Positions 41,826 to 60,643 are shown, counted from the stretch's first letter. The stretch is DNA of 64,000 nucleotides from Candidatus Moraniibacteriota bacterium (GCA_040772365.1 JAXGYI010000006.1:4014-68013); one strand, 5' to 3'. Notes: a model not told the origin generated them from the sequence alone. Made by a program: numbers and translations.

Positions 41826-41914
41826 GGAGAGGTGCCAGAGTGGTCGAATGGGACTGACTCGAAATCAGTTGTCTGTTCTTGAATGGACCGTGGGTTCGAA
41901 TCCCACCCTCTCCG
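41826..41914 (+). tRNA. tRNA-Ser (anticodon CGA)
   Basis: Acceptor GGAGAGG/CCTCTCC, anticodon stem ACTGA/TCAGT with loop CTCGAAA, a long variable arm, T-loop GGTTCGAAT. Confidence 0.9.
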
Positions 41915-41968
41915 CACAAAGCTCATAAGGTAGAGTAAGACCCAGGGTCTTCGCAAAATGAGCAATCT

Positions 41969-41994
41969 AAAACCGCCATGAATTTGGCGGTTTT
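41969..41994. terminator. bidirectional intrinsic terminator
   Basis: AAAACCGCCA-tgaattt-GGCGGTTTT: a 9-bp GC-rich stem with A/T runs on both sides. Sits between tRNA-Ser(+) and a minus-strand gene. Confidence 0.6.
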
Positions 41995-42017
41995 AGTGTG
42001 TCTATATTTTTGTTTTT

Positions 42018-42821
42018 TTACTTGCAGTCGCTGCTTATGAACTTGCCCCAAGTCCTTTGACTTAGTGATCCAGTTTCATCTTCATTAGGTGCGACTTGCA
42101 TCATTACTTTCCAGAATCCAGTTGGTCCTGCCATAGCTGGACTCCAGTCCATTTTAGCTCCATCTTCAGATCCTAAGCTTACTCTAAGATTTCCCCATGA
42201 TGTGAAGAGTACTCTTGATACCTTATCTTTAATTGAGCTGTCAGAATATACAGCTTTCATAATCTGGAATGAAACTATCTTCGCACTATCGCAATTTGGA
42301 AGTGCTCCATTGCCAGCATTTACGATAACCTCGTAAGGCGGAGGCGTGGTTGATTTTGCAAAATTACTTTTTGAATCCCAGATAGTGATCTCAAATTTAT
42401 CACTTATTTGTTTAATATTGCTTTCTATTTTTGCAATAGGGTCAGTTTTCTCTTCTTCAGTTTTAGTTGGGGTTTCAGTTACAGGCGCAGGTTGAGGTTC
42501 TGCTTGAGTTGCTACAGCTTGCGGTTCTTCAGTTTTCTGCGGTTCTGGTTGCGGCTGCTTGTTTTCTGTTACAGTAACCTTATTTTCAACTGGCGCAGAT
42601 TTGTTTTCAGATTTATTTCCTCCATAAATAAATATGGCAAGAATGATTACTCCAATAATTGCAAAGCCTTGCTTTTCTTTACTCCAAGTTGTTTTATGGG
42701 TTATATACCACATGGCAAACAGTGGCCATATTAGCAAGGCAATTATGATGCCCCACCATTTTTTATACCATTCTTTTTGAGCATTTTGAGTCTGCTCAAC
42801 AGACTTTGTTTCTTTTTCCAT
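42018..42821 (-). CDS. hypothetical membrane-anchored protein with Pro/Glu/Thr-rich linker
   Basis: N-terminal TM helices, 'PQPEPQKTEEPQAVATQAEPQPAPVTETPTKTEE' linker, C-terminal globular domain. Confidence 0.4.
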   Translation of the reverse strand: MEKETKSVEQTQNAQKEWYKKWWGIIIALLIWPLFAMWYITHKTTWSKEKQGFAIIGVIILAIFIYGGNKSENKSAPVENKVTVTENKQPQPEPQKTEEPQAVATQAEPQPAPVTETPTKTEEEKTDPIAKIESNIKQISDKFEITIWDSKSNFAKSTTPPPYEVIVNAGNGALPNCDSAKIVSFQIMKAVYSDSSIKDKVSRVLFTSWGNLRVSLGSEDGAKMDWSPAMAGPTGFWKVMMQVAPNEDETGSLSQRTWGKFISSDCK

Positions 42822-42941
42822 AATTTTTCGTCTAGGTTTTTTAAAATTATTTCAAAAATTGATTTTTAAGTAACACAAAAGGTCCCGCGAGCCGGACGAC
42901 AATCCCTTTCGAGACTGCCCGATGAACCTTTCGGAACATCG

Positions 42942-42988
42942 ACCTAGACGAATAAGCGCCGGTCACGAGACCGTTTCTATTCGTCTAG
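42942..42988. repeat. perfect 12-bp inverted repeat (CCTAGACGAATA ... TATTCGTCTAGG) with 23-bp spacer; a third CGTCTAGG copy at 42827-42838
   Basis: Read directly from the sequence. Lies about 100 bp downstream of the serine recombinase gene. Confidence 0.45.
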
Positions 42989-43087
42989 GATTCATATATT
43001 CTGCCATGCCCACGCCTTTCGTCATGGGTTTAGGCAATGTTGTACCCCAATTATTACATTTTTAAGGAACCTTTTCAATACCTGTGG

Positions 43088-44458
43088 TTATTTCATGGGG
43101 GTCTCATCTTTTTTGGCTAGTTTTAACTTCTTATTTATAAAAATAAGCCTGCTTTTCAGGCCTGCTAGCAACTCTCGCTTTTCATCAATTTTTCCTTCCC
43201 TTAGGACATACTTGGCATAAGTTCTGATATCAAAATTTTCTTGGAGCTTGGCTTCTTTTTCTTTGCCTTGCATCATGAGTACAGTTTTCTGGAACTGGTT
43301 GTATCTTTCGATTTCTTCCTCAAATTGTTTTCTAAGACCGATCTCATCAATTTCTAGTTCATCAACAATTTTCACTAGATCATTTATTAAATCTATTTCT
43401 CTCGCGTATCCAGCTTTGCAATGCAGATCTCTCGCCTTGGTACATCCATAGTAGATATGTTTATTTAGCCCGCCATTTTTTAATTGCTTGTATTTTTCTG
43501 TGGCAGTAATTCCCGAACCGCAATGTCCACAAGTTATGAGTTTGGTAAATGCGAACTCGCGACCTTCTCTGACAATGCGATCTCGCTTAAGTTGCTCTTG
43601 AGTGAGTTCGAATAATTCTTTTGTGATAAGCGGTTCATGATTTCCTTGATACCAATTTCCGCTATCTTTGGGATATTCAAATGGTCCATAATAGAAGGTA
43701 TTTTGAAGAAGCCGATAAATATTACTTAGTGAAAGATTTTTATTACTTTTGCCTTTGAAGTTCAATTCAAACCTAAGCCAATGATAAACCTTTCTTCCGC
43801 TCCAGTGATCGTATCCGACTTTTTCAAACATCCTTTTTATGATCGGTCCTCGAATTGGATCAATGACTACTCGGCAATTTCGCTCAGACAATCTTTCGTT
43901 GATATATCCAGTTGGAGTGCATGTTGGCCAAATACCCATTTCGCATCTTGCACGAAGTCCTCGCTTCACATTGATGCCCCTGTTATCATTTTCAAGTTTG
44001 GCTTGCGAGCATAAAATCATTAGCAAAAATTTTTCATTGGGAGAATTTTTGAATTGCTGACCATAAGTTCTGATTTCCATCAGAAGTTTTTGATCCATTA
44101 AATCAACCAGCGTTCCAAGATCGCCAGCGTTTCTGCTTAAACGATCGGGTGCCCAAGTCAGTATTCCGTTAAATTTATCTCTCCGAATATCTTCAATAAG
44201 TTCATTAAAAACTGGTCTTTGCGCTGAATCCTTAGCTGAGTGACTTTCACGTCTGATTTCCACAATTTCCAAATTCTCACGCTCCGCGATCTGGAGCATT
44301 TCTTTGACTTGGGAATCAATTGAAAGCACTTGGCGTTCCTCGGATTCGGTTGATTTTCTTGCGTACAGGCAATATTTGACCTTAGTCGGTTCTGCCTCTT
44401 GCTGGCCTTGAAAACCCTTGGAAATCCCTATTTTTTGCTCTACGGTTGTGTTATTCAT
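43088..44458 (-). CDS. large serine recombinase (resolvase/integrase family)
   Basis: N-terminal catalytic domain 'CLYARKSTESEERQVLSIDSQ' with the Ser nucleophile. Recombinase domain and C-terminal zinc ribbon 'CGHCGSG...YYGC'. Confidence 0.85.
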   Translation of the reverse strand: MNNTTVEQKIGISKGFQGQQEAEPTKVKYCLYARKSTESEERQVLSIDSQVKEMLQIAERENLEIVEIRRESHSAKDSAQRPVFNELIEDIRRDKFNGILTWAPDRLSRNAGDLGTLVDLMDQKLLMEIRTYGQQFKNSPNEKFLLMILCSQAKLENDNRGINVKRGLRARCEMGIWPTCTPTGYINERLSERNCRVVIDPIRGPIIKRMFEKVGYDHWSGRKVYHWLRFELNFKGKSNKNLSLSNIYRLLQNTFYYGPFEYPKDSGNWYQGNHEPLITKELFELTQEQLKRDRIVREGREFAFTKLITCGHCGSGITATEKYKQLKNGGLNKHIYYGCTKARDLHCKAGYAREIDLINDLVKIVDELEIDEIGLRKQFEEEIERYNQFQKTVLMMQGKEKEAKLQENFDIRTYAKYVLREGKIDEKRELLAGLKSRLIFINKKLKLAKKDETPMK

Positions 44459-44524
44459 ATAGTTATTACTTTATCTAATGAATGACGCAACCCTTGAATG
44501 AAGTCCAGACCCCTTAGAAATCTG

Positions 44525-45964
44525 CTAAAATCCCATCGGTTTTCTGGCAAAAACCCTTGGTGATCGCTTGTCCATTTTCACTGCCTCTCTGGCAACTATC
44601 GTAAAAGCATCAACCAAATCGTCGTGTTTTTCCTTGCCAAAACCAATGAGGTTTTCTATTAATTCTTCTGCTCCAATTTTGGGAAAGAGAATTCTACCAC
44701 TTGGGATAAGATTACTTATGGATGCAAGACGTGCGCGTTTGTCTGAAGTAACCTTACTGCCTTCAGCTTTGCAACCCTGAATGATTAACTGTTCAATGGC
44801 AACTCTTTGATATCCAACATCCTCAACAAAAATAATCCTATATCCCAAATATTGAAGCGATTCATACAGCAACTTAATTTGTTCAATGGTTTCTGTGAAA
44901 TTAAATCTGCTGTTTATTGGATTGGGCAAAATATAAATATGAAAATCTTTTCCATGTCCATAAATTGCAGCACTAACTATAGCAGTAAAGTCTGCTGACG
45001 TTTTTTGTGATATTGCCAAATCGGCTCCTATAATAACTTTCCTACATCTTCCCTTGGGTAAGGATGGATAATATTTGATTTGATCAGGATAAACAATCTG
45101 GTCTTCATCGGGAATTATCTCCAGCAGGTACTCACGTTTCCATGCAATCTCATTTCCAATGTTTTTATGTTCAATCTCAATATCTTTTAGAGTTGGATAT
45201 TTTCCTGACCACAATATTTCTCCTTTATCATCTACAAGAGGATAAGACTTAAAGACTCCGGTCGAACTTCCTTCTTCAATATCTCGTTTCAAATGCATCA
45301 GTAAAGAGTCTTCATGAAGAAGATTCCCAACAATCACAAGTTTTGTATTTCTATCTCCAGTAGGAATCACTTCACCCTTAAGCCAATCGTATGTTTTTTG
45401 TCGACCTTCTTTTGTTTTGGCTGATGCCATATCTTCAACATCGTCGCCAATAATTAAATCTGGGCGATGTGCTCCATGACGGAGTCCACGAATACTTTGC
45501 TCAGTAGATGCAACAGAAATTCTGGCGTTCATATTGGAAAAAACAAGAGAAGAAGAGCCCCACTCATCACTTTCTTCTTGAAAGGGTCCGAGATCATTTT
45601 TTAGTAACTGATTGCTTTCAAGCTCACGTTTAAGATTTATCATGTGCTGCTTTGCTTGATTTCTGGTTTGGCAAAGAATTAACACAAACTTCTTTTGTTG
45701 TTTTCCAAGAATTGCCCATATTGGATATGAGGTTGTAATTATGGTGGATTTTCCAGAACCCCGAAAAGCTACTATGTATAAATTTTTAACTTTTTTATCT
45801 TCCGTAAGATTAAACATTTCTTCTTGGAAATATGCAGTCTCATATTTTACATAATGAGGAAAATAGAAATTGAAAAACATGATATGACTTTCTTTAGTCA
45901 CCGCAATTCTGACAGCTCTGTCAGACATCATCCTATTAGTTAATTTTTTGTTTATTACTTTCAT
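44525..45964 (-). CDS. phage terminase large subunit
   Basis: Walker A 'AFRGSGKST', Walker B 'LIIGDDVED', C-terminal RNaseH-like nuclease 'IGADLAISQKTSADFTAIV'. Confidence 0.75.
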   Translation of the reverse strand: MKVINKKLTNRMMSDRAVRIAVTKESHIMFFNFYFPHYVKYETAYFQEEMFNLTEDKKVKNLYIVAFRGSGKSTIITTSYPIWAILGKQQKKFVLILCQTRNQAKQHMINLKRELESNQLLKNDLGPFQEESDEWGSSSLVFSNMNARISVASTEQSIRGLRHGAHRPDLIIGDDVEDMASAKTKEGRQKTYDWLKGEVIPTGDRNTKLVIVGNLLHEDSLLMHLKRDIEEGSSTGVFKSYPLVDDKGEILWSGKYPTLKDIEIEHKNIGNEIAWKREYLLEIIPDEDQIVYPDQIKYYPSLPKGRCRKVIIGADLAISQKTSADFTAIVSAAIYGHGKDFHIYILPNPINSRFNFTETIEQIKLLYESLQYLGYRIIFVEDVGYQRVAIEQLIIQGCKAEGSKVTSDKRARLASISNLIPSGRILFPKIGAEELIENLIGFGKEKHDDLVDAFTIVAREAVKMDKRSPRVFARKPMGF

Positions 45965-46344
45965 TTCCGCTTCTTAAAAGATGCGAGGCGCAAAGCTTCT
46001 CTAACTGCACTAGCTTGTTCTGGTGTTAATTCTTCTTGCGGTTCTGATTTTGTTGTAATCTCAACACGTTCTTTGAACTTTTCATGACGATGATTTAACC
46101 AAAATCTAATCGCTGGAAAATTCTTTTCTTTGATTAATGATATGAGTTGAGACTCGCTCATATCATTTACCAGGGCTTCACCTTCAGACAATGCTTCATC
46201 CAAAACTTTACGAAACTTCTTATCCTTATCTCGCCAACGATAAACGGTAGCTCGAGAAACTCCAGCTTTCTCGCAAGCCACTTGGATGATTGGAATTTTC
46301 TTGAGATTATCCAAAAAAAGTTTTTTAGTGTCATTGCTTTTCAT
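45961..46344 (-). CDS. HTH DNA-binding protein, terminase small-subunit-like
   Basis: 'IQVACEKAGVSRATVYRWRDKD' HTH. Sits directly upstream of the terminase large subunit with a 4-nt overlap. Confidence 0.5.
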   Translation of the reverse strand: MKSNDTKKLFLDNLKKIPIIQVACEKAGVSRATVYRWRDKDKKFRKVLDEALSEGEALVNDMSESQLISLIKEKNFPAIRFWLNHRHEKFKERVEITTKSEPQEELTPEQASAVREALRLASFKKRK

Positions 46345-46622
46345 ATTTGTTTTGCCTTTATTCCAAAAGTTTTATCAAATCGATTGATAATTGTTTGGCA
46401 ATATTCAGGATCAAGTTCGACCATCACACATTTTCTTTTGGTTTGTTCACATGCCACCATAGTTGAGCCGCTGCCTCCGAAGCAGTCATAAATAACTTCA
46501 CCGATTTCCGTACTATTGAGAATAATTCTGCGAAGTAGACCGATTGGTTTTTGTGTAGGATGCAATGAACTTTTATTTGGCTTTGGATAGTAAAGAATCG
46601 ATTTATCAATGATACGAGGCAA
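46341..46622 (-). pseudogene. truncated beta-class N6-adenine/N4-cytosine DNA methyltransferase (C-terminal fragment only)
   Basis: 'HPTQKPIGLLRRIIL...DCFGGSGSTMVA' (SAM-binding FxGxG end of beta-class MTases). No DPPY/NPPY catalytic motif in frame upstream. Confidence 0.55.
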
Positions 46623-46805
46623 ATAATTAAATGTTTAAGGAATAAAATATTGCTTAAAGATGATTTAACCACTGAAGATGAAGAGTTTCTTGGAAAATTA
46701 AACGAGGCACATAGCTTTCAACCATACTTAGGTAGTGGAAATAAATTCAAGGAAAGCGTTCAGAAATTATTTGAAAAATAGAATAATTAAGTATCTCATA
46801 AACAA

Positions 46806-49211
46806 ATGGAAAGTAAGCCATACTCAGTCTATATAGATCATCGCCCTACAAGGATAGCATTCTTAGTTAATCCTGATGGTGATCAAGCTTGGATTGATAG
46901 AATAATTGAATATAACAGAGAAAAATGGGGTGGAAGATTCAACCCCATTATTTTTACCGATGGAAAAAATATCGAAGATAAGTGGTGGAAATTCTTAAAG
47001 GATTATGATCCAGATATTATCAAGTCTACAATGCCACTTGAAGACGATCTTCTTAAAAAGATTCGAATATTTTTAACACCTTATTCTGTAGAAGTTCCTC
47101 GCCAAGATGAACAATATATACATATTCCTGATGACCCAGTTTCAATATTTCCCACCAAACAAGGAATTTTGCAAATTTCTAGAAGCTTCATGGATGATGC
47201 TGCGAGTCTGGTAATGTTTGATGTTGAAAAAGATACTCCTGATTCTATAAAAAAGTTTTTAGAAAGAAATTTTGGTGTTCAAGAGGATAATCAAAGTACT
47301 CCATATTATATAAGAAAGTCCCTAAGAAACTGCGACAAAAAAATATACAAAATTAAAGATTTTGAATCCCTAAATGAAGCCCTCTTAGATTTAGGAGATT
47401 TTCATAATAGAATTGTATTTCCTGCTCAAATATGTTCGATTCCAAATTATTTTAAAGACACCGCTTGGAGCAATGAAACAGAAAAATTTACAGTTGTTAT
47501 AGGAGACACGCCTGATGAATTAGCGTACCTATGGAACAGAGCTTTGCAGATTAAAAGCTGGCTAAGGCAAGATTTTACATGTCTTTGGTTGTCCAATGAA
47601 TTAGCAAATAATGAAATCATTAAGCCAGGATTAACAAAACTCTTTATTCGCTTTTCTGAAAGAGTTGGGAATGATAATTATCGTGGAATAAATTTCGTAT
47701 CTTTTTCATTATCGGAACAAGAAATAACTACTTTTTCATCAAGTATTGATGGATCATTATGGAGGCCACGGCAAATAATCAAGTACAATGAAATTCAAAT
47801 ACCCAATTTTGATAACAGGGCATCATTTTTTATTTTGAAACGAGGTCTCGAACTTTACAGGGCTCATTCCGAGGAAGAGCACATTATAATAAATGAACCT
47901 AATACAGAAGAGGGTGTTATGGGTGGTCAACATTGGGTTATTGATTTGCATATTCAATATCGGCCAGAATTATTCGAAAACATACAAGGAATAGATTACT
48001 GGTGGCAATTACCAAGAAGAGCAAATATTTTTCATAGCTTAAGGATGTTTAATAAGGAGACAAGAATAAATGAAGATGGGATGTTTAGTATTAAGATGCG
48101 AAGAAAATCTCACATTGAGCCAGATGAAAATATTTTAGTAGTTAGACTTCCACAAGAAAGAGGAATTTTTCATGCACTAACCTGTGGAGATAGTTATGAT
48201 TTTTATAAAGGAACTGACAGAGAACGATTTATGTCCAGACCTTTTGATTCCATGCAACGCTCAGATAAGGGCATGTATTTATCTGGAATTTTAAGCTTAT
48301 TTCCTGACCTGTTGAATGCTCATTACCAAATAGAAGATAGCTATTGGAGAAGTATTTTTGAAAAAATGTCTAACAGAAATGCTAATAAGGATCCCGATAG
48401 AAAAACAGAGATAAAAAACAAATTAAAGAAAATTATTGATAAAAATCAGGATTATAATGATCCTCAAAAACTAGATTATCTAGCTGAGAAAGTTTTAGTA
48501 ATGGCAAAAAATAATTCAGTACAAGAGGTTGAATTTTATTTCAAAGATTTTCTTAAAAATTATACCAACGACGAGGGAAAGAAATTTTCAGATTTAGAGA
48601 CAGAAGAAGCTGAGAGAGCAAAAAATGATATAAAGGATAATATTTCAGGCTTGATAGAGCAAAACATTTTATTAGCTGGCATTAAGCCTAGATGTCCGCG
48701 TTGTGGCTATAGAATTTGGTACCACATAAACGAAACTCAGCAACATATTGATTGTAAAGGATGTGGCCATATTTTTTCCCTAGATGGTGAAGAAAGGTGG
48801 TCTTATAAGTTAAACAGCCTTGTGAGATCCGCTTTTTCACTGCATGGGACAATCCCTGTTTTATTAGCACTCGGACAATTGCAACATGATGTTAGATCAT
48901 CGTTTATATTTTTCCCTGGAATTGAACTTATTTCGAAAGATGAAGAAGAAAAAATAGATAATGAAATCGATTTGATTTGTATTAAGGATGGAAAATTTAT
49001 TATAGGTGAGATAAAACAAACGATAGGATTATTTTGTCCGGAGGATTTCAAGCGCATGGAGAAAGTTGCAAAATTAATCAAACCAGATAAAGTAATTTTT
49101 TCTTCACTTGATAAGCAACCAACTGTATATGTAAATAAGGCAATTGAATCTTTAAGAAATAATCTTAAAGATTTGGAAATTGAAGTTGAATGGTATCAAC
49201 TCCATTTTTAG
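46806..49211 (+). CDS. large hypothetical protein with C-terminal zinc ribbon and possible PD-(D/E)xK nuclease-like motif
   Basis: 801 aa, very AT-rich. 'CPRCGYRIWYHINETQQHIDCKGCGH' followed by 'IDLICIKDGKFIIGEIKQ' (D...ExK spacing). No other recognisable domain. Confidence 0.5.
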   Translation: MESKPYSVYIDHRPTRIAFLVNPDGDQAWIDRIIEYNREKWGGRFNPIIFTDGKNIEDKWWKFLKDYDPDIIKSTMPLEDDLLKKIRIFLTPYSVEVPRQDEQYIHIPDDPVSIFPTKQGILQISRSFMDDAASLVMFDVEKDTPDSIKKFLERNFGVQEDNQSTPYYIRKSLRNCDKKIYKIKDFESLNEALLDLGDFHNRIVFPAQICSIPNYFKDTAWSNETEKFTVVIGDTPDELAYLWNRALQIKSWLRQDFTCLWLSNELANNEIIKPGLTKLFIRFSERVGNDNYRGINFVSFSLSEQEITTFSSSIDGSLWRPRQIIKYNEIQIPNFDNRASFFILKRGLELYRAHSEEEHIIINEPNTEEGVMGGQHWVIDLHIQYRPELFENIQGIDYWWQLPRRANIFHSLRMFNKETRINEDGMFSIKMRRKSHIEPDENILVVRLPQERGIFHALTCGDSYDFYKGTDRERFMSRPFDSMQRSDKGMYLSGILSLFPDLLNAHYQIEDSYWRSIFEKMSNRNANKDPDRKTEIKNKLKKIIDKNQDYNDPQKLDYLAEKVLVMAKNNSVQEVEFYFKDFLKNYTNDEGKKFSDLETEEAERAKNDIKDNISGLIEQNILLAGIKPRCPRCGYRIWYHINETQQHIDCKGCGHIFSLDGEERWSYKLNSLVRSAFSLHGTIPVLLALGQLQHDVRSSFIFFPGIELISKDEEEKIDNEIDLICIKDGKFIIGEIKQTIGLFCPEDFKRMEKVAKLIKPDKVIFSSLDKQPTVYVNKAIESLRNNLKDLEIEVEWYQLHF

Positions 49212-49229
49212 CTAAAACTTTTACTAATA

Positions 49230-50324
49230 ATGAATAATTACAAACATCTCCGAGATTGCATCTACTACAGCGAGCTATACGACCGCATGACAATCGACGA
49301 ATGCGAATGTTGGGATAGCGAAGTTTATGATGCTTATGTAAAATCGGGTAAAAAGTTTGACCCAGCAAAACCATCGCGAAGACTTCATGGCGGACTTTTG
49401 GCGGATCTTCACTTGCATTTTGTTAAAGGTGAACGCTATCTTGATAAGGAAACCACGATCAATGAATGGATGAAACGCGATCAAGCAAAAGATGAAAAAC
49501 TGGAAAATGCCATTGAGACAAAAGGCGTGCGTTGCCTTCATTGCAGTAGATCACTAACTAACTGCATTTCTCGTGATCTGATGATTGACTCTAAGGGCAA
49601 TGAAGAAGTTGTCTTTTTATTTGAATGCGACAAATGCCATAAGCGCAGAGCCTATTGGGAAAACGGAATTGAATGGCGACCAAAACCAGTATTGTGTGAG
49701 AAATGTAATTCAGAAATGGAAAGCAGTCATAATAAAAAAGGAAGCGTTGTTGAAACCAGTTACCGTTGCCTTAAGTGTCATCACAAAACCACTTTTAGCT
49801 ACGATCTTAATGAAAAAGAAGAAGCTATTGATCCAAACTTCGAATCCAAGCGAAAGAAGTATTGCCTTTCGAAAGAAGAAGGCATTGAATATTCTATCGG
49901 TAAAGGACATCTTGAGGCAGCAACCAATCTCATGAAAGATATGGAAGAAAGAGAATCTAATAGTGACCTTTATGATGCTATTGCAAAAATAAAGAAGCTT
50001 ACTGTTGCGGAGCTTCAAAGTTTCCTTGATCCAGTCATAGAAAAAGCTGGCTATACCAAGCTTGAGTTTGAAAAGCCAGATATTCAAAAGGATGTGGTTT
50101 TAGGATTCGGCATTCAAGATGCTAAATCTGGCAGAAATGACCGCGAAAGCATTTATGATCTCCAAAGACTTCTCAAAACTAGCTTAAAGCCTACAAATTG
50201 GCGTCTAATGAGCGACGGGGTGAACTACCGCCTTGGATACCTCCAAGGTCGTTTAAAGGGCTTGGAAGGCGAAGAAAATCTCCGAAAGCTTGTTGAATGT
50301 TATAATAAAAATAAGATGAAATAA
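49230..50324 (+). CDS. hypothetical multi-zinc-ribbon protein
   Basis: 364 aa. CxxC pairs 'CLHCSRS...CDKCHKRR...CEKCNSE...CLKCHH'. 18 nt after the upstream gene. Confidence 0.45.
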   Translation: MNNYKHLRDCIYYSELYDRMTIDECECWDSEVYDAYVKSGKKFDPAKPSRRLHGGLLADLHLHFVKGERYLDKETTINEWMKRDQAKDEKLENAIETKGVRCLHCSRSLTNCISRDLMIDSKGNEEVVFLFECDKCHKRRAYWENGIEWRPKPVLCEKCNSEMESSHNKKGSVVETSYRCLKCHHKTTFSYDLNEKEEAIDPNFESKRKKYCLSKEEGIEYSIGKGHLEAATNLMKDMEERESNSDLYDAIAKIKKLTVAELQSFLDPVIEKAGYTKLEFEKPDIQKDVVLGFGIQDAKSGRNDRESIYDLQRLLKTSLKPTNWRLMSDGVNYRLGYLQGRLKGLEGEENLRKLVECYNKNKMK

Positions 50325-50328
50325 ATTT

Positions 50329-51129
50329 ATGATAATTGATTCTCACATTCACATCTCACTATACAATGACAATGCAAAATCATTGCCGGAAGCTTTTGAT
50401 TTGTTCTTGCAAAAGATGGAGAAAAATGAAATAAGTGGCGCGATAATTATTCCGGATAATATAGAAGGCAGTGACAGCATTGCTGATTTGGAAAAAGCTA
50501 TTACATTGATTGGTGCGCGCAAAAACTTGTTCCTTCTGGGCAGTCCGCAAATCATTCAGAGAGGATCAAGTGAATTGGAAAAATATCGAAAGCTTTTGGA
50601 GGATGGAAAAGTAAAAGGACTCAAATTTTTTTCGGGTCACGATCCTTATTATCCGACCGATGAGCGCTGTCAGCCGTATTATGAACTATGTCAAAAATTG
50701 GATGTGCCGGTTTTATTTCATACTGGTGAGAACTCAGGCGACAGCGAATGTGGCAAATGGAATGACCCAAGATATATCGTTGAGGTAGCCAAAAAATATC
50801 CCAAACTAAAAGTTGTCATTACTCATTATTATTGGCCAAAAATGGAATATTGTTATGACATAACTAGGGACATTTCAAATATCTACTTTGAAACGGCGGC
50901 CATGGCTGATGCCGAAGTGGTTGAAAAAAGCGGCGGGATTGAAAAGGTCAAAGAAATATTGCAAAAAACTATTACTGATCGACCGGACAAAGTTATTTTT
51001 GGCACCGACTGGCCGATGTGCAAAATTGAGGAGCATGTTGAGCTAGTGAAATCATTGGGGTTGAATAAGGATTTAGAAGAAGGGATATTTTGGGGAAATG
51101 CAAAGAAAGCTTATAATCTTCCGTTATAA
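50329..51129 (+). CDS. amidohydrolase-2 family TIM-barrel metal-dependent hydrolase
   Basis: 'MIIDSHIH' HxH metal site, 'LFHTGE', 'VVITHYY', 'FGTDWPM' Asp. 4 nt after the upstream gene. Confidence 0.7.
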   Translation: MIIDSHIHISLYNDNAKSLPEAFDLFLQKMEKNEISGAIIIPDNIEGSDSIADLEKAITLIGARKNLFLLGSPQIIQRGSSELEKYRKLLEDGKVKGLKFFSGHDPYYPTDERCQPYYELCQKLDVPVLFHTGENSGDSECGKWNDPRYIVEVAKKYPKLKVVITHYYWPKMEYCYDITRDISNIYFETAAMADAEVVEKSGGIEKVKEILQKTITDRPDKVIFGTDWPMCKIEEHVELVKSLGLNKDLEEGIFWGNAKKAYNLPL

Positions 51130-51191
51130 TTTGCCAAATAATTCAAAAGACGCTAGCATATAAAAATTAAAAAATAATACTATTAAGTAAC

Positions 51192-51956
51192 ATGAAATCA
51201 CAAATTTACAATCAGGCCAAATATTACGAAATCGCTTTTAGCTTTGTTGATTCAGAAAGACAAGCCGATTTGTTTGAGAAGTTTATAAAAAAATATAGCA
51301 AGACGGGCGTAAAATCTGTTTTGGATTTGGCTTGCGGAACTGCTCTGCAACTCAGGGAAATGGCAAAAAGAGGATACAAATCAATCGGCCTGGATGCTAG
51401 TTCAAAAATGCTGGATTATTTGAAATGTGAATCTGAAAAAAATGGATTGAATGTAAACACAATCAAAGCTGATATCAATAATTTTAAGCTCAAGGAAAAA
51501 ATTGATTTTGCGTATATAATGATGGGGTCTATCATCTATGTCAAAAGCAATGATTTATTTCTTTCACATTTAAATTCAGTCGCGGATTCGCTAAATTCCG
51601 GCGGACTGTATCTTATAGAAAATCTCGCTATAAATTGGGCTGATCCATCTTTTTTTAAACCGCAACGCTGGATAATGAAAGAGGGTAAAATTAAGGTAAA
51701 AACAACTTATCAAATAATTCCGAAAAATCCGCTGAAACAAACAGTGACCCAAATATTAAAGATGGAAGTAGACGACAATGGAAAAAAGATGGAATTTATC
51801 GATAAGGATGATCTTAAGATAATTTTCCCTGAAGAATTGAGACTCCTTGTGGATAAAAATAGTAAGTTTGAATTAATTGGTTTTTTTGAGAGAAATAACG
51901 CGAAGCTATTAAAGAATGTTTCGCCCGATAATATTGTTTTATTAAGGAAAAAATAG
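51192..51956 (+). CDS. class I SAM-dependent methyltransferase
   Basis: Motif I 'VLDLACGTA' and post-I acidic 'GLDAS'. No DNA-MTase catalytic motif. Confidence 0.75.
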   Translation: MKSQIYNQAKYYEIAFSFVDSERQADLFEKFIKKYSKTGVKSVLDLACGTALQLREMAKRGYKSIGLDASSKMLDYLKCESEKNGLNVNTIKADINNFKLKEKIDFAYIMMGSIIYVKSNDLFLSHLNSVADSLNSGGLYLIENLAINWADPSFFKPQRWIMKEGKIKVKTTYQIIPKNPLKQTVTQILKMEVDDNGKKMEFIDKDDLKIIFPEELRLLVDKNSKFELIGFFERNNAKLLKNVSPDNIVLLRKK

Positions 51957-52024
51957 TTTCATTTTAAAATTATATAAGGAAAATGACCGGCTTTTCAGTC
52001 GGTCATTTTGTTTTGTGAAGATTC

Positions 52025-53221
52025 TCACAGTGATGCCCTGCGGATTTTAAGCTTTTTTAAAGCTGGGTATACACCGCAGTGGTTGGTGTCTTTGTATAGG
52101 TGTCTAGACATTGCCATGTTTTGCAAATCGCAGTGTCCACCGGATTTGAGCAAAGAGCAGTTGATGCATCCGGAAAAGGTATCGATTCGGAGTTTTCGTT
52201 CCTCTCCAAAGGCTTGAAGCCATGCGTCTGAAAATCTTGTATAACGAAGGTTATATTTTGATTTCCAGTTTTCTGCAGCATAGTAATTGTCGGCATACAA
52301 AAATCCATCCGAACTTACATATGCCACGAAAAGGCCTGGCTCCGGCCTCCCAGTTATTCTGACCAACTCCGAGATCGACTCGTAGATATTCGGATTTGAA
52401 ACAGGATATGTAGGCATCGGAATTGAGCGATTAGATTCGTAGCTCCTCCTGGCTTTTTCGAGCTCCAAAAGTTTCAGGAACTGATTTTCGCACAGAAGAA
52501 GTGACGGATTTTTCTTCGCTCTTCCGATTGGCAGGATGTCATTGAGAGAAAAATCGATGCCACTTTCAGCGCACCATTTTGCGGCTTGGATCATCTCGTC
52601 AATATTGTCATTGAAGATCAGTCCTTGGATTGCGAATGCCCTCCTTTTCGATTTGAGATTATTGATTATGCCCAAGATTCGCTTTCCTTGTATATGCCGT
52701 AAAATCGCGGTGCCTTTTTCTCCGTCAAAACTCAACACCAGAAAAACATCTTTGGGGATATCATCCACATTGATATTTTTCTCAAACTCAAGCCCGTTGG
52801 TTAGAAGATTACAGTTTAGCCCGATCCTCCTGGCATAAGTTACAAGTTCTATGCAATCTTTCCGCAGCAATGGATCTCCGCCGGTAAAGTATACATTTAA
52901 AACCTGCAACTTTCTGAGTTGATCTAGGATGTTTTTCCATTCGGTCGTGGACAACTCATCTTTTCTCGGTTTTCCGGCAGAGATGTAGCAGTGCTCGCAA
53001 CGCAAACCGCAACTTCGGGTAAGTTCCAGGTGTACTACTAATGGTGATTTTAGCGGGCAGGGTTTTGTTGTTAATTCGACAGGATAATCGGACAGTGGTT
53101 GATTGTCTTTGTTCAGGAAAATCAATTTTCCATCACCTGTTGATCGGATATTGCAGTAGCTTTCATGCCTTTCGATTTCTATATACATGGAAACCTCCTT
53201 GATTAAGTTGTTAAGGTGCAT
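52025..53221 (-). CDS. radical SAM enzyme with C-terminal SPASM domain
   Basis: 'LTRSCGLRCEHCY' CxxxCxxC, and a C-terminal 'CINCSLLKSGGHCDLQNMA...HCGV' auxiliary-cluster Cys pattern. Confidence 0.8.
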   Translation of the reverse strand: MHLNNLIKEVSMYIEIERHESYCNIRSTGDGKLIFLNKDNQPLSDYPVELTTKPCPLKSPLVVHLELTRSCGLRCEHCYISAGKPRKDELSTTEWKNILDQLRKLQVLNVYFTGGDPLLRKDCIELVTYARRIGLNCNLLTNGLEFEKNINVDDIPKDVFLVLSFDGEKGTAILRHIQGKRILGIINNLKSKRRAFAIQGLIFNDNIDEMIQAAKWCAESGIDFSLNDILPIGRAKKNPSLLLCENQFLKLLELEKARRSYESNRSIPMPTYPVSNPNIYESISELVRITGRPEPGLFVAYVSSDGFLYADNYYAAENWKSKYNLRYTRFSDAWLQAFGEERKLRIDTFSGCINCSLLKSGGHCDLQNMAMSRHLYKDTNHCGVYPALKKLKIRRASL

Positions 53222-53283
53222 CTTCTTTGACTTCCAAGACTATCATATCAATTTTGTTTAGTCAAAATTACCTGCGCGAAATC

Positions 53284-53335
53284 TTGACAAAAGCAATATT
53301 TATCTGTATAAAGATATGAACTGCATTTTTGCAGT
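53284..53335 (+). promoter_or_regulatory. near-consensus sigma70 promoter (TTGACA-N17-TATAAA) plus palindromic operator-like site ACTGCA-N4-TGCAGT
   Basis: -35 at 53284-53289, -10 at 53307-53312, palindrome at 53320-53335. About 55 nt upstream of the RNHCP/radical-SAM operon start. Confidence 0.45.
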
Positions 53336-53388
53336 CAATCAAACGGATTGCAACTTAACAACAGAATATACGATAAAAGGAGGCTGTG

Positions 53389-53703
53389 ATGGCAAAGCGA
53401 TTTTCAAGGCGTATCGAGGATTTTGTCTGTGAGAACTGTGGGGAGCTTGTTGAGGGTAACGGGTACACGAATCATTGTCCCAGATGCCTTTTTAGCAAAC
53501 ATGTCGATGTTAACCCGGGAGACAGAGCGGCAACTTGTGGCGGAATCATGGAGCCGATCAGTATTGAGGGTGGAAGAAAGGGCTTCATGATAACATTCCG
53601 ATGCAAGAAATGCGGTCATACGAAAAGAAACAGATCATCTGAAGTTGATGACATGAACAAAATCATTGAGCTTTCCAAGGGATATGCTCAAAAAAGGAGG
53701 TGA
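53389..53703 (+). CDS. RNHCP-domain zinc-ribbon protein
   Basis: 'GYTNHCPRC' (RNHCP-like motif) plus 'CENCG' and 'CKKCGH' CxxC pairs. Strong SD AAAGGAGG. Confidence 0.55.
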   Translation: MAKRFSRRIEDFVCENCGELVEGNGYTNHCPRCLFSKHVDVNPGDRAATCGGIMEPISIEGGRKGFMITFRCKKCGHTKRNRSSEVDDMNKIIELSKGYAQKRR

Positions 53704-53707
53704 TGCC

Positions 53708-54991
53708 ATGAATATCTTTATCCCAAGTGTTCCACATCTGGTTCACATAGAAACGACTTACGCTTGCAATCAGAGCTGTCGTTTCTGTTACAACCCTAAC
53801 CGCAACATGAAAATTGACCGGACGATTATCGATGGTATCGTTATGTCAATTTTCGAAGCATGGATTCCTCATGTGTATTTGATCGGAGGAGAACCCAGCT
53901 TGCTCGGTGCGAAGAAGCTCAATGAATACATAGAACTTCTCTCGCAGAGATCGTCGGTCACTATCGTGACAAATGGCCAAGTTTATCTCGAAGGCCTTTC
54001 CGATAAATTGGCCTGCATCGGGATACCTATGCATGGCATCAGCGAAACTCACGATTTTCTTGCTGGAAAAAGCGGAAGCTTCGAAACAGCAATCAAGTCG
54101 GTCGAGCGGTATGTGAAAAGAGGATTTGATGTCCGGTGCATACCCGTGCTGACAAAGACCAACTTCGACCAGATGTATGATGTCATCGGGTTAGCGAAAG
54201 AGCTCGGGATGGAAAGCGTCTTCGTAGACAGATACGAGGATGGCGGCATAGGCAGTCTTCGCTCATTGGAGCTTAAGCCATCACTTGAACAATTCAGGGT
54301 GGCGCTGGGGCAAATGATCGAAGGCAGAAATGATTTCGGTATCCCCGTTGGATGGGGAACGGCCATACCGTTCTGCTTGGATGAAAGGTTGATCACCGAA
54401 AACATGTTTGCGGATTGTGGAGCAGGTATTACATTCTGCGCCGTCAATCCCAAGGGTGAAGTAAGGCTGTGCAACCAATCCGAGCGGATTTACGGCAATG
54501 TGTTGAACGAACCGATGAATGAAATCTGGCACAAACCGGAACTTTCGGAGTTCCGCGATCTTGGATGGGTTGAAAAACCATGTCTGGGTTGCGCGGTTTT
54601 GTCAGATTGCATGTGCGGTTGTAAAGTTGATGCTAACCACTCGGAAACATTCTGCATCGACTACGCCGTAAGGGAAAATGGTAGCTTTTGCGAACCCAAA
54701 CCCTTGATTCATGATCGGGAAGGCTCGGGCATTCCTCACGAATTGCGTCGCTTCAAACTGAACAAGTACGCGCGACTCAATTCTCAACATAAGGAAAAAT
54801 ATCTGGTGACTCAATACCAGACAATTATCCTTGACGACATCGCCCTGTCTATGATGCAACAAATACTGTCAGGTGTAGTATGTGAAGAAACCCTGATAAG
54901 TATGAATGCTGAATTCGTAGATGAGGACGAGGTGAGGAAGTTTGTGTCTGTCCTGGATCAAGTCAAGGCAATAGACATTATCAAGGAGTGA
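53708..54991 (+). CDS. radical SAM enzyme with SPASM domain
   Basis: 'ETTYACNQSCRFCY' CxxxCxxC, C-terminal 'CLGCAVLSDCMCGCKVD' SPASM. The ATG at 53708 has SD AAAAAGGAGGTGA. Confidence 0.8.
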   Translation: MNIFIPSVPHLVHIETTYACNQSCRFCYNPNRNMKIDRTIIDGIVMSIFEAWIPHVYLIGGEPSLLGAKKLNEYIELLSQRSSVTIVTNGQVYLEGLSDKLACIGIPMHGISETHDFLAGKSGSFETAIKSVERYVKRGFDVRCIPVLTKTNFDQMYDVIGLAKELGMESVFVDRYEDGGIGSLRSLELKPSLEQFRVALGQMIEGRNDFGIPVGWGTAIPFCLDERLITENMFADCGAGITFCAVNPKGEVRLCNQSERIYGNVLNEPMNEIWHKPELSEFRDLGWVEKPCLGCAVLSDCMCGCKVDANHSETFCIDYAVRENGSFCEPKPLIHDREGSGIPHELRRFKLNKYARLNSQHKEKYLVTQYQTIILDDIALSMMQQILSGVVCEETLISMNAEFVDEDEVRKFVSVLDQVKAIDIIKE

Positions 54992-54994
54992 ACA

Positions 54995-55933
54995 ATGGAA
55001 AGAGAGCTGGCAGTGCGAGATTGGCACTGGGAAGTCACAAAAAAATGCAACCTGAAATGCCGCCACTGTATACTCGGGGGCTGTAGCAGTCAGGAGCAGG
55101 AGTTGACGACTCAGGATTCGCTCAGGGTCATATCTCGCATTGTCCAGCTTGGAGGAAAAACCCTCAGGATTACCGGTGGGGAGCCTCTTATGCGAAAAGA
55201 TCTAGGCCTAATTATTCGGGAGGCACACGCTTCTGGATTAGGCCTAGACTTAATAACTAACGGGACAATGTTAGACGATGACTTCCTGAGAAAGTACGGA
55301 CAGTGTATCAGTCACATGGCAATCAGTATTGATGGACAGAAAGAAGCCCATGAATATCTGAGAGGGATAGGGTCGTATGAAAAGTCCATACTGGCTGCAA
55401 AGAAGATTATGGACGTGGGTATAGATCTTTCTGTCTACATTACGGTACACTCATTAAATGAAAGCTCACTCGATCTTCTTGTGGATGAACTTGTGTCCCT
55501 TGGGATTGGAAGTTTTCATTTTAATGAAATCAATATGGAAGGGAGAGCATCGAAAAATCGGCATTTGCTTCTCGGACGGGAAAAGACTTCCAATAGACTT
55601 GATCGCATATTGTCCCAGCTACAAAAAGTCGTAGACGTTGGGCATGTTTCTCGCGATTCAAGCTGCTCGATCTCTTCAGACTCGGTCTACCTTGCTTCGG
55701 ACGGAAGAATCTATGCTTGCGTGGAGATAGCTTTTAAATCTCCCGAGCAAAAGATTGCCCATATTCTCGACCATGGGGCTGAAGGCAGGATAAACCGGTT
55801 CTTTTCAGAAGTGGTTATCCCGAAAGACTGCATTTGCCGATATTCATCATTTAGCATGCAAGGTATTAGTGTGTTACTTAATGAATCGGAGAGATGCCCA
55901 ATTCTAAAGGAAAGGAGGTTTGACAATGGATAG
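54995..55933 (+). CDS. radical SAM enzyme (possible SPASM/twitch C-terminus)
   Basis: 'VTKKCNLKCRHCILGG' CxxxCxxC. C-terminal Cys residues 'CVEIAF...DCICRY'. Confidence 0.75.
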   Translation: MERELAVRDWHWEVTKKCNLKCRHCILGGCSSQEQELTTQDSLRVISRIVQLGGKTLRITGGEPLMRKDLGLIIREAHASGLGLDLITNGTMLDDDFLRKYGQCISHMAISIDGQKEAHEYLRGIGSYEKSILAAKKIMDVGIDLSVYITVHSLNESSLDLLVDELVSLGIGSFHFNEINMEGRASKNRHLLLGREKTSNRLDRILSQLQKVVDVGHVSRDSSCSISSDSVYLASDGRIYACVEIAFKSPEQKIAHILDHGAEGRINRFFSEVVIPKDCICRYSSFSMQGISVLLNESERCPILKERRFDNG

Positions 55934-56492
55934 TCATCTGCGTAAACTGTACTCAGAGTTTAGTTTTCTCTACCGGGACATTCGATCTGTTTGCGCAGAT
56001 TGTAAAGATCATGACTGCGAGGGATATGTGTGGCTTCTGAAAGACGAGGCGTCCTTGCTGTATGATCTGAACGTTCCCATAGTGGAAATAAACGATAGTA
56101 CCTTTTTCATCCACTCATTCGAAGAGGTTGATGGATCATTATCGATCGACAAGCCAAAGCCGCCATGTAATCTGAGGCGCGATGGACTCTGTTCGATATA
56201 TGATTCAAGACCCTTGGTGTGCAGGATGTATCCGGTTGGACTCGTTACGGTGGATGGTGAGGTTTTGCTTGTCCTGCACAAGGACTGCAAATTCTCACGC
56301 GATATCAACGGCGAGGCTAAGGCAGCATTCATCGCGCAAGTGATTGAAGTGCTGAAACGGGCATCACCTGATCTTCTTGTGGAAGTCATGACTTCCTACA
56401 GAGAGGTTGATGCAATCTCGGCCTTTCCTGAAGGCCCCAACACCTATGAGGTTATCATGCCTTTTAGGTCTCTCATCCAAGAAAGGAGGTGA
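55926..56492 (+). CDS. YkgJ-family CxxCxxCC cysteine-cluster protein (putative Fe-S/Zn-binding)
   Basis: 'CADCKDHDCEGY...RRDGLCSIYDSRPLVCRMYP' matches the YkgJ/UPF0153 consensus. Confidence 0.6.
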   Translation: MDSHLRKLYSEFSFLYRDIRSVCADCKDHDCEGYVWLLKDEASLLYDLNVPIVEINDSTFFIHSFEEVDGSLSIDKPKPPCNLRRDGLCSIYDSRPLVCRMYPVGLVTVDGEVLLVLHKDCKFSRDINGEAKAAFIAQVIEVLKRASPDLLVEVMTSYREVDAISAFPEGPNTYEVIMPFRSLIQERR

Positions 56493-56498
56493 GCGGTT

Positions 56499-56615
56499 AT
56501 GTCGAAGTGCAAAGCTGTTTTGGACAGCCAGAAGGTGACCAAGATCACGGTCAGGAAGAAGGGCGAGAAGGCGACGGAGGTGTCGAAGGAAGTTGCGGCG
56601 ACCAAGAAGCCCTGA
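56499..56615 (+). CDS. unannotated 38-codon Lys-rich small ORF (MSKCKAVLDSQKVTKITVRKKGEKATEVSKEVAATKKP)
   Basis: ATG 6 nt after the YkgJ stop, preceded by AAAGGAGGTGA. Strongly AAG-biased Lys codons. Below the 60-aa cutoff of the ORF track. Confidence 0.35.
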   Translation: MSKCKAVLDSQKVTKITVRKKGEKATEVSKEVAATKKP

Positions 56616-57043
56616 AGAGCGTGGCGGTCTTGCAGTGAACTCTAACAAGGAGATTCGGTTTAAAAAACTGGGTCTCCTTTTTCTTTATACTATAATAATT
56701 TTCGAAACACCGTACTGTCTTATTCCTCAAAATAAGACAGTGGCTGTCCCGTGTCTCATTTGTCTCATTTTGCCCTCAAAAACCCGACCCGACCTCTTCA
56801 AATCCCAAGACTGGACAGACCCTCAAAAAAGCCTTATAATTCCCTATATATTTGGGTTCCAGACCGAGGTAGCCCGCTAAAGGTCCTTGTGCACGCTTTC
56901 GCTACGTGAAGATTTTTTAGAGCCGCAATACATACAGCAGTAAGGATTATGATTATGACGTATTGTGTGTGTTGTGCGATACAGTTGCGTAAAAGGGCAT
57001 GTGGCTTTATAATAGAGTCGTATGTTTTATGTGAGGAGATGAT

Positions 57044-57574: not shown

Positions 57575-57586
57575 CGATATAGTACT

Positions 57587-58135: not shown

Positions 58136-58174
58136 CATGTGTACTGTTAACGACTGATAGGGAAAATATGAAAA

Positions 58175-58200
58175 CAGAATCACGCGGATTCTGTTTTTTT
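58175..58200 (+). terminator. intrinsic terminator
   Basis: CAGAATC-acgcg-GATTCTG hairpin followed by T8. Confidence 0.65.
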
Positions 58201-58201
58201 G

Positions 58202-58273: not shown

Positions 58274-58333
58274 GCAGGGGAGTCTTGCACATGTTGACTA
58301 TAGTACCGCAGGATACATTTTTTTTCAAGTATT

Positions 58334-60622: not shown

Positions 60623-60643
60623 ATATAGATAGGTGATTTACTA

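Follow-up and report, generated by a model that had tools for sequence, protein, structure and literature searches.

The window analysed here is a stretch of bacterial DNA of 64,000 nucleotides (GCA_040772365.1, JAXGYI010000006.1:4014-68013), and all positions are counted from its first letter. An AT-rich island of 14,962 bp occupies positions 41,916-56,877, its first base lying directly 3' of the tRNA-Ser(CGA) gene, with CCGC at both flanks. The island is a foreign insertion, and it is probably (about 0.7) a single integrated mobile element from a conserved family of the Patescibacteria, or Candidate Phyla Radiation (CPR), that spreads most likely as a satellite. On its tRNA side are the genes for a large serine recombinase (LSR) and for the terminase small and large subunits (TerS and TerL), together with the remnant of a DNA methyltransferase (MTase) gene. 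These are followed by the genes of two proteins of 801 and 364 amino acids (p801 and p364), by a cassette of amidohydrolase, MTase and radical S-adenosylmethionine (rSAM) genes, and by a conserved non-coding end.

An earlier note on this DNA, made from its sequence, had proposed a horizontally acquired island of mosaic composition at 41,826-56,900. Composition and the divergence of a second allele at the junctions agree with an acquisition that begins at the 3' end of tRNA-Ser(CGA). The right end given there lies within ~25 bp of the one derived here, and the left end has to be moved to 41,916 because 41,826 includes the tRNA. GC content in 1-kb windows falls from 0.49 at 41-42 kb to 0.32-0.39 across 42-52 kb, which is the AT-rich shift that the note had described up to ~52 kb. 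It is 0.41-0.47 across 52-57 kb and host-like (~0.47-0.53) beyond. By segment, GC is 0.376 in the recombinase/terminase core, 0.345 in p801 and p364, 0.349 in the amidohydrolase and MTase genes and 0.451 in the rSAM part, so that the composition is indeed mosaic. The entire island has a GC of 0.389 against 0.475 for the host, taken as the remainder of the window, and random host chunks of 3.6-15 kb all have a GC of at least 0.442.

Tetranucleotide usage, normalised for base composition, correlates with that of the host at 0.16-0.32 in every island segment. In 200 random host chunks per size, all correlations were at least 0.80. The rSAM part has the intermediate GC that the note had assigned to it, but its tetranucleotide usage is fully foreign, and this part of the island is foreign by composition despite its near-host GC. 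The host DNA (1-41825 and 56880-64000) also avoids the palindromes GGCC (observed/expected ratio 0.24), CTAG (0.24) and TCGA (0.30), has no copy of GGCC in its 7.1-kb right flank, and over-uses GCGC (2.5) and TGCA (2.35). This avoidance suggests long-term restriction pressure, and for GGCC and TCGA it is absent from the island, where their ratios are ~1.0. The island is not an assembly chimera, since independent assemblies reproduce it: a Logan contig of 16,279 bp matches 41,981-58,258 at 99.9% identity, and an NCBI contig of 114 kb matches 47,860-64,000 at 99.5%.

Ends of the element at the tRNA-Ser site

The features of the two ends are as follows, with a slash marking each junction.

41826-41915, plus strand: host tRNA-Ser(CGA), found by ARAGORN and Rfam
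41912-41960, no strand: attL junction CCGC/ACAAAGCTCATAAGGTAGAGTAAGACCCAGGGTC; after the slash, the left-end arm P' of the element
~41970-41995, no strand: hairpin AAAACCGCCA-N6-TGGCGGTTTT, inside the element, read from the sequence
56683-56877, plus strand: conserved non-coding right end, comprising a hairpin, GTGTCTCATTTGTCTCATTT as a motif at 56751-56770 and, at 56855-56877, the terminal arm GGTTCCAGACCGAGGTAGCCCGC
56874-56925, no strand: attR junction GCCCGC/TAAAGGTCCTTGTGCACGCTTTCGCTACGTGAAGATTTTTT, marked by the jump in identity to the variant allele

Both junctions are fixed by a second allele at the identical site, on Logan contig SRR13001968_36006 (14,919 bp; loci L005, L010 and L017), which shares the gene order and the flanks. 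The 3' end of the tRNA is identical in the two alleles, and the variant L017 departs from the window immediately past tRNA-Ser(CGA). Inside the element, the alleles are 60-98% identical or cannot be aligned. At the right junction the identity rises from about 80% to 99-100%, and it stays at 99-100% over ~56,880-58,261. The similarity within the element is stepwise, with 90-98% at 53.25-56.75 kb, 78-90% at 50.25-53 kb, ~73% in the TerS/MTase region and unalignable sequence in the rest. The variant proteins are 66% (TerL), 69% (recombinase) and 44% (p364) identical to those of the window, an unrelated 232-aa gene holds the position of p801, and 220 aa of the MTase are retained. The comparison with genomes lacking the insertion, which had been advised for defining the junctions, yielded no such genome, and the divergent allele took its place.

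The left junction is also evident from conservation. The sequence past the tRNA reads ...CCTCTCCGC/ACAAAGCTCATAAGGTAGAGTAAGACCCAGG in the window, ...CCGC/ATCAAGCTCATGAGTTAGAGTAAGACCCGAGG in the relative L018 and ...CCGC/ATCAAGCTCATAGTATCGAGGGTGACCCGAG in the relative L021, although the genomes are unrelated. The arm A[TC]CAAGCTCAT...GACCC.AG is near-identical 3' of tRNA-Ser genes with other anticodons (L018, L021, L022) and in the variant L017. Conserved element arm and allele divergence both start at the base that follows ...CCTCTCCGC. With its T-arm and acceptor strand, the tRNA-Ser(CGA) 3' end, which reads ...GGGTTCGAATCCCACCCTCTCCGC, would form the left arm of attB. The hairpin at 41970-41995 has counterparts in L017, L018 and L021 and is probably a two-way terminator serving both the tRNA and the gene of a 267-aa protein next to it. 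The bidirectional terminator reported earlier is visible as a hairpin, but a consensus terminator scan did not flag it.

At the right end, window positions 56,704-56,882 are 90.5% identical to the non-coding segment L081:20024-20202 from a different genome. The core of this end is also kept in L021, L019, L036, L026 and L017; it contains GTGTCTCATTTGTCTCATTT and terminates in GGTTCYAGACYGA-N4-GCCCGC. Conservation ceases directly after GCCCGC in all these loci and unrelated sequence follows, which places the right junction between 56,877 and 56,878. In L021 and L081 the unrelated sequence opens with a terminator-like hairpin. The far-end motif stands alongside the TerL module or p364 in 5 of 15 IMG/VR matches, and the conserved right end has no match in Rfam. 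The terminal arm GGTTCCAGACCGAGGTAGCCCGC would be the P arm of attP, and the sequence after the slash in attR is host DNA, which would originally have lain downstream of the tRNA.

Only a short imperfect core, CCGC[A]NAAAG, is common to both junctions of the window. L021, a complete element of 16.5 kb that runs on one contig from tRNA-Ser(GGA) to the far-end arm, carries the 9-nt repeat CCGCATCAA at both ends. A duplicated tRNA 3' segment, or an attL/attR repeat of that kind, had been expected beside this tRNA and was not found. When the final 31 nt of tRNA-Ser were compared without gaps to 42.0-58.2 kb, the best match was 19/31, which falls at the 95th-99th percentile of shuffled-sequence maxima and is not located at the junction, and generic repeat finding returned no att-like pair. 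A short imperfect repeat without a long tRNA duplicate fits a serine rather than a tyrosine recombinase. The terminal arm and the T-arm and acceptor strand of the tRNA are alike at 16 of 27 positions, a likeness that an unbiased scan would not call significant and that is suggestive given that the position was fixed beforehand. The predicted attB junction is ATCCCACCCTCTCCGC-TAAAGGTCCTTGTGC, also written as GGGTTCGAATCCCACCCTCTCCGC+TAAAGGTCCTTGTGCACGC, and the predicted attP junction is GAGGTAGCCCGC-ACAAAGCTCATAAGG, also written as GGTTCCAGACCGAGGTAGCCCGC+ACAAAGCTCATAAGGTAGAG.

Three further observations concern these ends. The best sigma-70-like match of the region (56812-56840, plus strand, TGGACA-17-TATAAT, 11/12) lies within the right end and points to the host genes at 57068-58135, whose promoter the element may drive or replace. 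In L021, ~320 nt past the right junction (16998-17070), there is a second, degenerate tRNA-Ser 3' end followed by a copy of the left-end arm (…CCCTTTCCGCATCAAGCTCATAGTATTGAGAG…), which suggests tandem accretion of elements at one site. Beside the element in L071 are two tRNA-Ser-like genes 190 nt apart (17164-17253 and 17444-17531). One of them, with the unusual anticodon ACT, may have arisen through integration as a hybrid or pseudo-tRNA.

A backbone shared among CPR genomes

The tRNA-proximal part of the element contains the following features.

42018-42821, minus strand: 267-aa membrane-anchored protein; its translation has two transmembrane helices, a linker rich in P, E and T, and a globular domain at the C-terminus
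42898-43036, minus strand: LOOT RNA (Rfam RF03000), between the recombinase gene and the 267-aa gene
43088-44458, minus strand: large serine recombinase (integrase), 456 aa, catalytic motif YARKS36T, 1.17 kb from the junction
44525-45964, minus strand: full-length TerL with Walker A GSGKST, Walker B LIIGDD and the nuclease-domain aspartates
45961-46344, minus strand: TerS-like helix-turn-helix (HTH) protein, 127 aa, matching phrog_4044 (2.8e-13) and other TerS PHROGs
46341-46622, minus strand: remnant of an N6/N4 DNA MTase, its last 93 codons, covering only positions 152-219 of 221 of the PF01555 profile

The gene inventory of the earlier note holds, with its LSR, both terminase subunits, truncated DNA MTase and three rSAM genes and without capsid or tail matches. 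The recombinase matches Pfam Resolvase (PF00239, 9.5e-21), Recombinase (PF07508, 1.6e-12) and Zn_ribbon_recom (PF13408, 3.8e-7), all above the cut-offs, as well as the integrase family phrog_95 (5e-62). All three LSR domains and the catalytic Ser are intact. TerL matches phrog_38 over residues 11-471 (7e-75). Compared with the 81%-identical relative L018, TerL has a ratio of nonsynonymous to synonymous substitution (dN/dS) of 0.076 and TerS one of 0.073, and Walker A and B are intact; by this comparison, purifying selection on both subunits is strong. In relatives there are two MTases, both intact (~427 and ~255 aa), and the remnant in the window corresponds to the second MTase of this core module. 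Comparison of the 19 open reading frames (ORFs) examined with Pfam, PHROGs and NCBIfam gave no matches to capsid, portal, tail, lysis or replication genes. Nor were a primase, a replicase or AlpA detected in the island, apart from a weak sub-threshold AlpA-like HTH signal within TerS. The 267-aa protein has a weak PHROG match to a superinfection-exclusion family (E 1.3e-3). Its position is held by relatives of 260 aa in L018 and 286 aa in L017 and by a DUF4352 protein in L019; as the att-proximal accessory gene, it possibly serves superinfection exclusion.

TerL has 3,607 homologues in the protein collection searched, and the best 120 are 58-100% identical to it. The named ones among these 120 come mostly from Moranbacteria, Zambryskibacteria and Parcubacteria, with one labelled Bacteroidota, and others are labelled just 'bacterium'. 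Some TerL homologues are found on contigs of up to 495 kb. Five IMG/VR loci, 60 metagenome loci and several contigs obtained by exact protein were compared. The tRNA-proximal module recurs in over 55 of the fetched loci. The order MTase(-MTase)-TerS-TerL is invariant across them, and in 53 loci TerS is, without exception, directly upstream of TerL. The serine recombinase follows directly past TerL, follows past inserted cargo, or lies upstream on the other strand. When the ORFs of 57 loci were clustered, four families occurred in more than 12 loci, namely TerL (56), MTase (53), TerS (53) and the recombinase (41), and no structural family (within 10 kb on either side) or replication family recurred.

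The recombinase end abuts tRNA-Ser genes in L018 (GCT), L021 (GGA), L022 (GCT), L069 (GGA) and L071, and L052, L053, L064 and L068 have a tRNA-Gln 1.8-5 kb past this end. Two att-bounded elements, those of the window (15.0 kb) and L021 (16.5 kb), are free of structural genes. In L068:11501-19298, tRNA-Gln(TTG) is located 2.6 kb past the recombinase gene and precedes dnaX. The window has this tRNA-Gln-dnaX pair as well, 1.3 kb right of the island (58201-59908), and several metagenome contigs break at this tRNA-Gln. In L013/L027, an IMG/VR and metagenome contig, two TerL genes stand in tandem between TerS and the recombinase (702-2081 and 2226-3617); they have diverged, and their identity to the window TerL is 54% and 50%. 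The IMG/VR entry L097:1-14480 (IMGVR_UViG_3300020195_001307), which is filed as viral, contains a perfect 9,117-bp direct repeat with MTase-MTase-TerS and a TerL cut at 401 aa. It was considered as a circular or concatemeric form of the element and rejected, since the repeat unit includes host ribonucleotide reductase (RNR), PfkB and NUDIX genes beside the truncated TerL; the repeat is a tandem duplication in the chromosome or else an artefact of assembly.

The LOOT RNA of the window scores 55.1 bits against a gathering score of 46.4 and spans model positions 1-121 of 121. With model R1, 28 copies were found in 65 sources (the window and 27 more, L012-L077). Covariation is strong: in an alignment of 24 distinct sequences, 88.1% of the cells are paired, compared with 31-41% in slid controls, and both sides change in 30 of 35 pairs; the alignment was fitted to the model, which somewhat favours the structure. 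LOOT is located past the recombinase gene, in front of the MTase operon on the opposite strand, or in the interval from TerL to the recombinase. Almost always an ORF of its own strand begins 50-77 nt downstream of it, and the ORFs found there come from many unrelated families. From its placement, LOOT looks like a leader of accessory genes or a small RNA (sRNA) at cassette borders. The motif is not discussed in the main text of the LOOT paper. An orphan RNA that Rfam types only as sRNA thereby gains a genomic context, the accessory genes of these elements.

Alternative explanations and known satellites

The earlier note had left the choice between a degraded prophage and a satellite that delivered cargo operons, and it is the satellite that the data fit. 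A decaying prophage, once a complete temperate phage, would have lost its structural, lysis and replication genes by deletion and kept its integrase and terminase with some morons. Genes typical of phages are present (TerS, TerL, MTase and integrase), one core gene (the MTase) is visibly truncated in the window, and degraded copies of the module exist elsewhere, as in L097, where the cut TerL lies beside host PfkB and RNR genes. This origin is nevertheless quite improbable. The identical minimal set recurs in the same order in more than 50 loci of many samples, the elements with both ends defined are 15-16.5 kb long with zero structural genes, and TerL and TerS keep their motifs and a dN/dS of ~0.07. 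Independent decay would not halt at one gene set every time. Another explanation is an immobile variable region by tRNA-Ser, a fixed defence hotspot whose alleles are swapped by homologous recombination in the conserved flanks and whose terminase is domesticated, in a manner resembling gene transfer agents or lateral transduction or for packaging interference. Both sampled strains have an occupant, neither an empty site nor an excised form was found, the element lacks a replication module, and the stepwise identity between alleles indicates homologous exchange of internal segments. A fixed hotspot is still unlikely, as the backbone abuts differing tRNAs in different genomes (Ser-CGA, Ser-GCT and Ser-GGA, with Gln nearby), the conserved element-side arms begin at the same tRNA position, the foreign composition is unameliorated, and the recombinase is intact, with a conservation similar to that of TerL.

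The island could also combine two unrelated acquisitions side by side, a recombinase element of ~8.4 kb (41,916-50,324) and a chromosomal rSAM cassette of 6.4 kb. The cassette stands alone in loci L083-L086, with homology limits at exactly 50,319 and 56,682. Identity between the alleles is 78-98% over the cassette and below 75% or unalignable to its left, the p364 homologue in L081 is followed by different genes, and the two parts differ in GC. What speaks against this explanation is the place of the conserved end. Its motif and P arm, shared with L081, L021 and L019, lie to the right of the cassette rather than in the 4-bp gap that separates p364 from the amidohydrolase gene, so the cassette is inside the element. 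With a correlation of 0.29-0.32, the tetranucleotide usage of the cassette is as foreign as that of the other segments. Nor is it ordinary core DNA, because it is only 78-98% identical between strains whose flanks are 99-100% identical. Two separate acquisitions are accordingly highly improbable.

Several points weigh against a single mobile satellite. No helper phage is known for these elements. A replication gene could not be recognised, which is unusual for satellites that need concatemers for packaging, and the truncated MTase means that the backbone of this copy is partly damaged. In a limited search by exact-protein look-ups of flanking genes, no empty site (attB) was found and only occupied or broken contigs were returned. 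A scan of the genome collection gave one relative only, L003, and no empty site. The contig of this 80%-identical relative stops exactly at the last tRNA bases, the contig of the NCBI metagenome-assembled genome L007 begins at 56,991; in all, three contigs of relatives break at the junctions. The predicted attP of an excised, circular form was absent in an IMG/VR search of limited extent, and a stricter search with the far-end motif gave no matches. The cassette occurs outside any such element in L083. The 15 kb need not equal one arrival event, because the identity of the alleles changes from left to right, which shows that the element has recombined internally. Lastly, the host affiliation is taken only from the names of homologues, and the label of L003 conflicts with it. 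This closest genome record (CAYRUU010000004.1, whose flanking gene has 80% identity) bears the name 'uncultured Micavibrio sp.', whereas the named relatives of the island proteins are nearly all Patescibacteria/CPR.

If the element is a mobile satellite, its life cycle may be outlined as follows. The LSR would insert it at the last bases of tRNA-Ser(CGA), with a crossover at or next to ...CCGC. The tRNA is left intact, and the element provides a new hairpin downstream of it. A fixed tRNA-side backbone (MTase, TerS, TerL, recombinase, LOOT and a small membrane protein) and a fixed non-coding far end hold exchangeable cargo between them. Infection by a helper phage, on which the element would depend, would lead to excision by the recombinase, and the copy in the window may still be mobile in this way. 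TerS and TerL of the element would recognise their own site and load the element into helper procapsids, the methylases would protect the incoming DNA, and the cargo would defend the host.

Taken by itself, the island is an ordinary tRNA-adjacent integrative element. As a family, the elements are closest to the phage-inducible chromosomal islands (PICIs), which with the Staphylococcus aureus pathogenicity islands (SaPIs) and related phage satellites have been defined for SatelliteFinder (PMC10085698). Like PICIs, they are integrated elements in the range of 10-20 kb with an integrase at one end, a TerS that might redirect packaging, no tail or lysis genes, and accessory and defence cargo, and one relative (L021) has a LexA/CI-like S24 repressor. 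They differ from PICIs in having a full TerL besides TerS, an LSR that acts at the end of tRNA-Ser in place of the usual tyrosine integrase, a LOOT RNA and paired DNA MTases in the backbone, and CPR-type hosts. No primase/replicase, AlpA or capsid-size-redirection genes were detected in the family of the window, and for lack of a primase/replicase or AlpA the element is not a PICI. Capsid-forming PICIs (cf-PICIs) encode their own TerS and TerL, which gives satellite-specific packaging, and also a capsid, portal, protease and head-tail connectors (bioRxiv 10.1101/2022.09.08.507074). The window element shares the TerS and TerL with them, but capsid, portal, protease and connectors were not found in it and are not recurrent in the 57 loci; without a capsid module, it is not a cf-PICI.

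Integration at a tRNA 3' end, small streamlined genomes, a mobility backbone with swappable cargo, and differing elements at one site in close strains are shared with the tycheposons of Prochlorococcus. Tycheposons have tyrosine recombinases and re-form a long tRNA repeat, whereas the family of the window has a serine recombinase, an imperfect core repeat of only 9-10 nt, and a terminase module. The prophages and islands of LSRs such as phiC31, Bxb1, A118 and SCCmec CcrAB have mostly protein-coding or intergenic targets. They resemble the element in their three-domain recombinase, the location of its gene beside one att site, and short att sites with little identity between attB and attP. The family of the window is distinct from them in targeting the extreme 3' end of tRNA-Ser, with an attP arm that is suggestively tRNA-like in part.

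In the literature, no description of such elements was found, which is not proof that none exists. It is conceivable, and suggested here only tentatively, that they make up an undescribed satellite family that is abundant across CPR, with its own TerS and TerL and DNA methylases but neither capsid nor replicon, an LSR whose attP arm mimics the tRNA-Ser 3' end, and a LOOT leader before its accessory genes. Such a family could be a major vehicle of defence systems and, if so, a major route by which they pass between bacteria with tiny genomes. Mobile elements, gene exchange and phage defence are little known in CPR/Patescibacteria, whose genomes are tiny. The element is compact, can be recognised by its four backbone proteins, its structured RNA and its pair of conserved ends, and has thousands of occurrences. 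It offers a handle for the biology of phage satellites in uncultured bacteria, for mining serine integrases with defined tRNA-end att sites, and for new CPR defence systems, candidates for which are p801/p364 and the rSAM/RNHCP cassette.

Cargo genes

The annotatable cargo of the relatives is, by its gene families, defence-related, and includes restriction-modification (R-M), Thoeris-like TIR, SMODS/CBASS-like and Abi genes. In L015, a type I R-M system, two ThsB-type TIR proteins and a YgjP peptidase lie between TerL and the recombinase. L012 has a PLD-SNF2 protein and an Eco57I/MmeI-like methylase, L019 has AbiEii, and L081 has type I R-M and DUF4238. L021 has a LexA/S24 repressor, a SMODS nucleotidyltransferase, DUF4238 and a helicase. 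In the window, PADLOC found no system-level match in the cargo and only generic rSAM/pVip N-terminal and mad2 methyltransferase similarity. The first two cargo genes of the window are the following.

46806-49211, plus strand: p801, 801 aa, with a C-terminal CxxC...CxxC zinc ribbon and a predicted PD-(D/E)xK nuclease domain
49230-50324, plus strand: p364, 364-aa zinc-ribbon protein, a cargo or accessory gene recurring in this element family

p801 belongs to no family in Pfam, PADLOC, PHROG or NCBIfam, and sequence profiles gave no match to PD-(D/E)xK. It has 2,097 representative homologues (50% identity clusters), most of them ~800 aa long. C630/C633/C650/C653 and D722/E735/K737 are invariant, the last three across 42 sequences. 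In the confident AlphaFold2 (AF2) model (pLDDT 86.8, pTM 0.84), the C-terminus resembles nucleases of the Can2/Card1 type, and Foldseek gave local matches to VC1899, Can2 and Cdn1, the best ones, and also to EcoT38I (E 1e-4 to 0.1). The model and the invariant residues point to a C-terminal zinc ribbon and PD-(D/E)xK nuclease, which is consistent with a defence effector. No relationship was found between p801 and the ~800-aa proteins beside p364 in L021 and L081, or between p801 and the 232-aa gene of the variant allele.

p364 has 241 homologues, and the named ones are from Moranbacteria, Parcubacteria, Yanofskybacteria and Patescibacteria, all CPR. It is present in five fetched elements (L017, L021, L071, L081 and L100), and several of its homologues are on contigs that match in size those with a TerL homologue. 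Its AF2 model (pLDDT 86.7) had no convincing match in the Protein Data Bank. p364 was considered as the terminal gene of the element, which is ruled out by L081, where 9 kb of other genes lie before the conserved end. A relationship to a recurrent 359-aa family downstream of LOOT was tested and not found.

To the right of p364 lies a discrete cassette of 6.36 kb (50319-56682, plus strand) with eight genes, annotated with Pfam and NCBIfam.

50329-51129, plus strand: Amidohydro_2
51192-51956, plus strand: SAM-dependent MTase
52025-53221, minus strand: rSAM, divergent
53386-53703, plus strand: RNHCP
53708-54991, plus strand: rSAM/SPASM
54995-55933, plus strand: rSAM
55920-56492, plus strand: CxxCxxCC protein
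56499-56615, plus strand: 38-aa Lys-rich peptide
56647-56679: terminator, from the terminator scan

All eight genes are also found together in L083-L086, in a different context whose genes are unrelated: two-component regulators stand to one side, and to the other a peptidase S51, an acetyltransferase and an AlbA_2 ATPase. Its nucleotide identity to the window is 81.5% in L083. The cassette is thus best seen as a discrete unit that appears to have been captured as cargo, and the mosaic composition of the island results from this capture and from the swapping of the first cargo gene (p801 against the 232-aa gene). Three rSAM enzymes, two of them SPASM-type, together with an MTase, an amidohydrolase and a small peptide suggest that the cassette modifies a peptide or small molecule. 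The identity of homologues to the rSAM/SPASM protein runs continuously from 93% down to 55%, and those with a name are nearly all CPR, with one labelled Caldithrix. In other CPR lineages, RNHCP is fused to the rSAM/SPASM enzyme, and there are also homologues that are double-length rSAM proteins (the proteins concerned are P0300 of 534 aa and P0347, P0353 and P0361 of ~722-725 aa). This supports the view that genes adjacent in the cassette are functionally linked.

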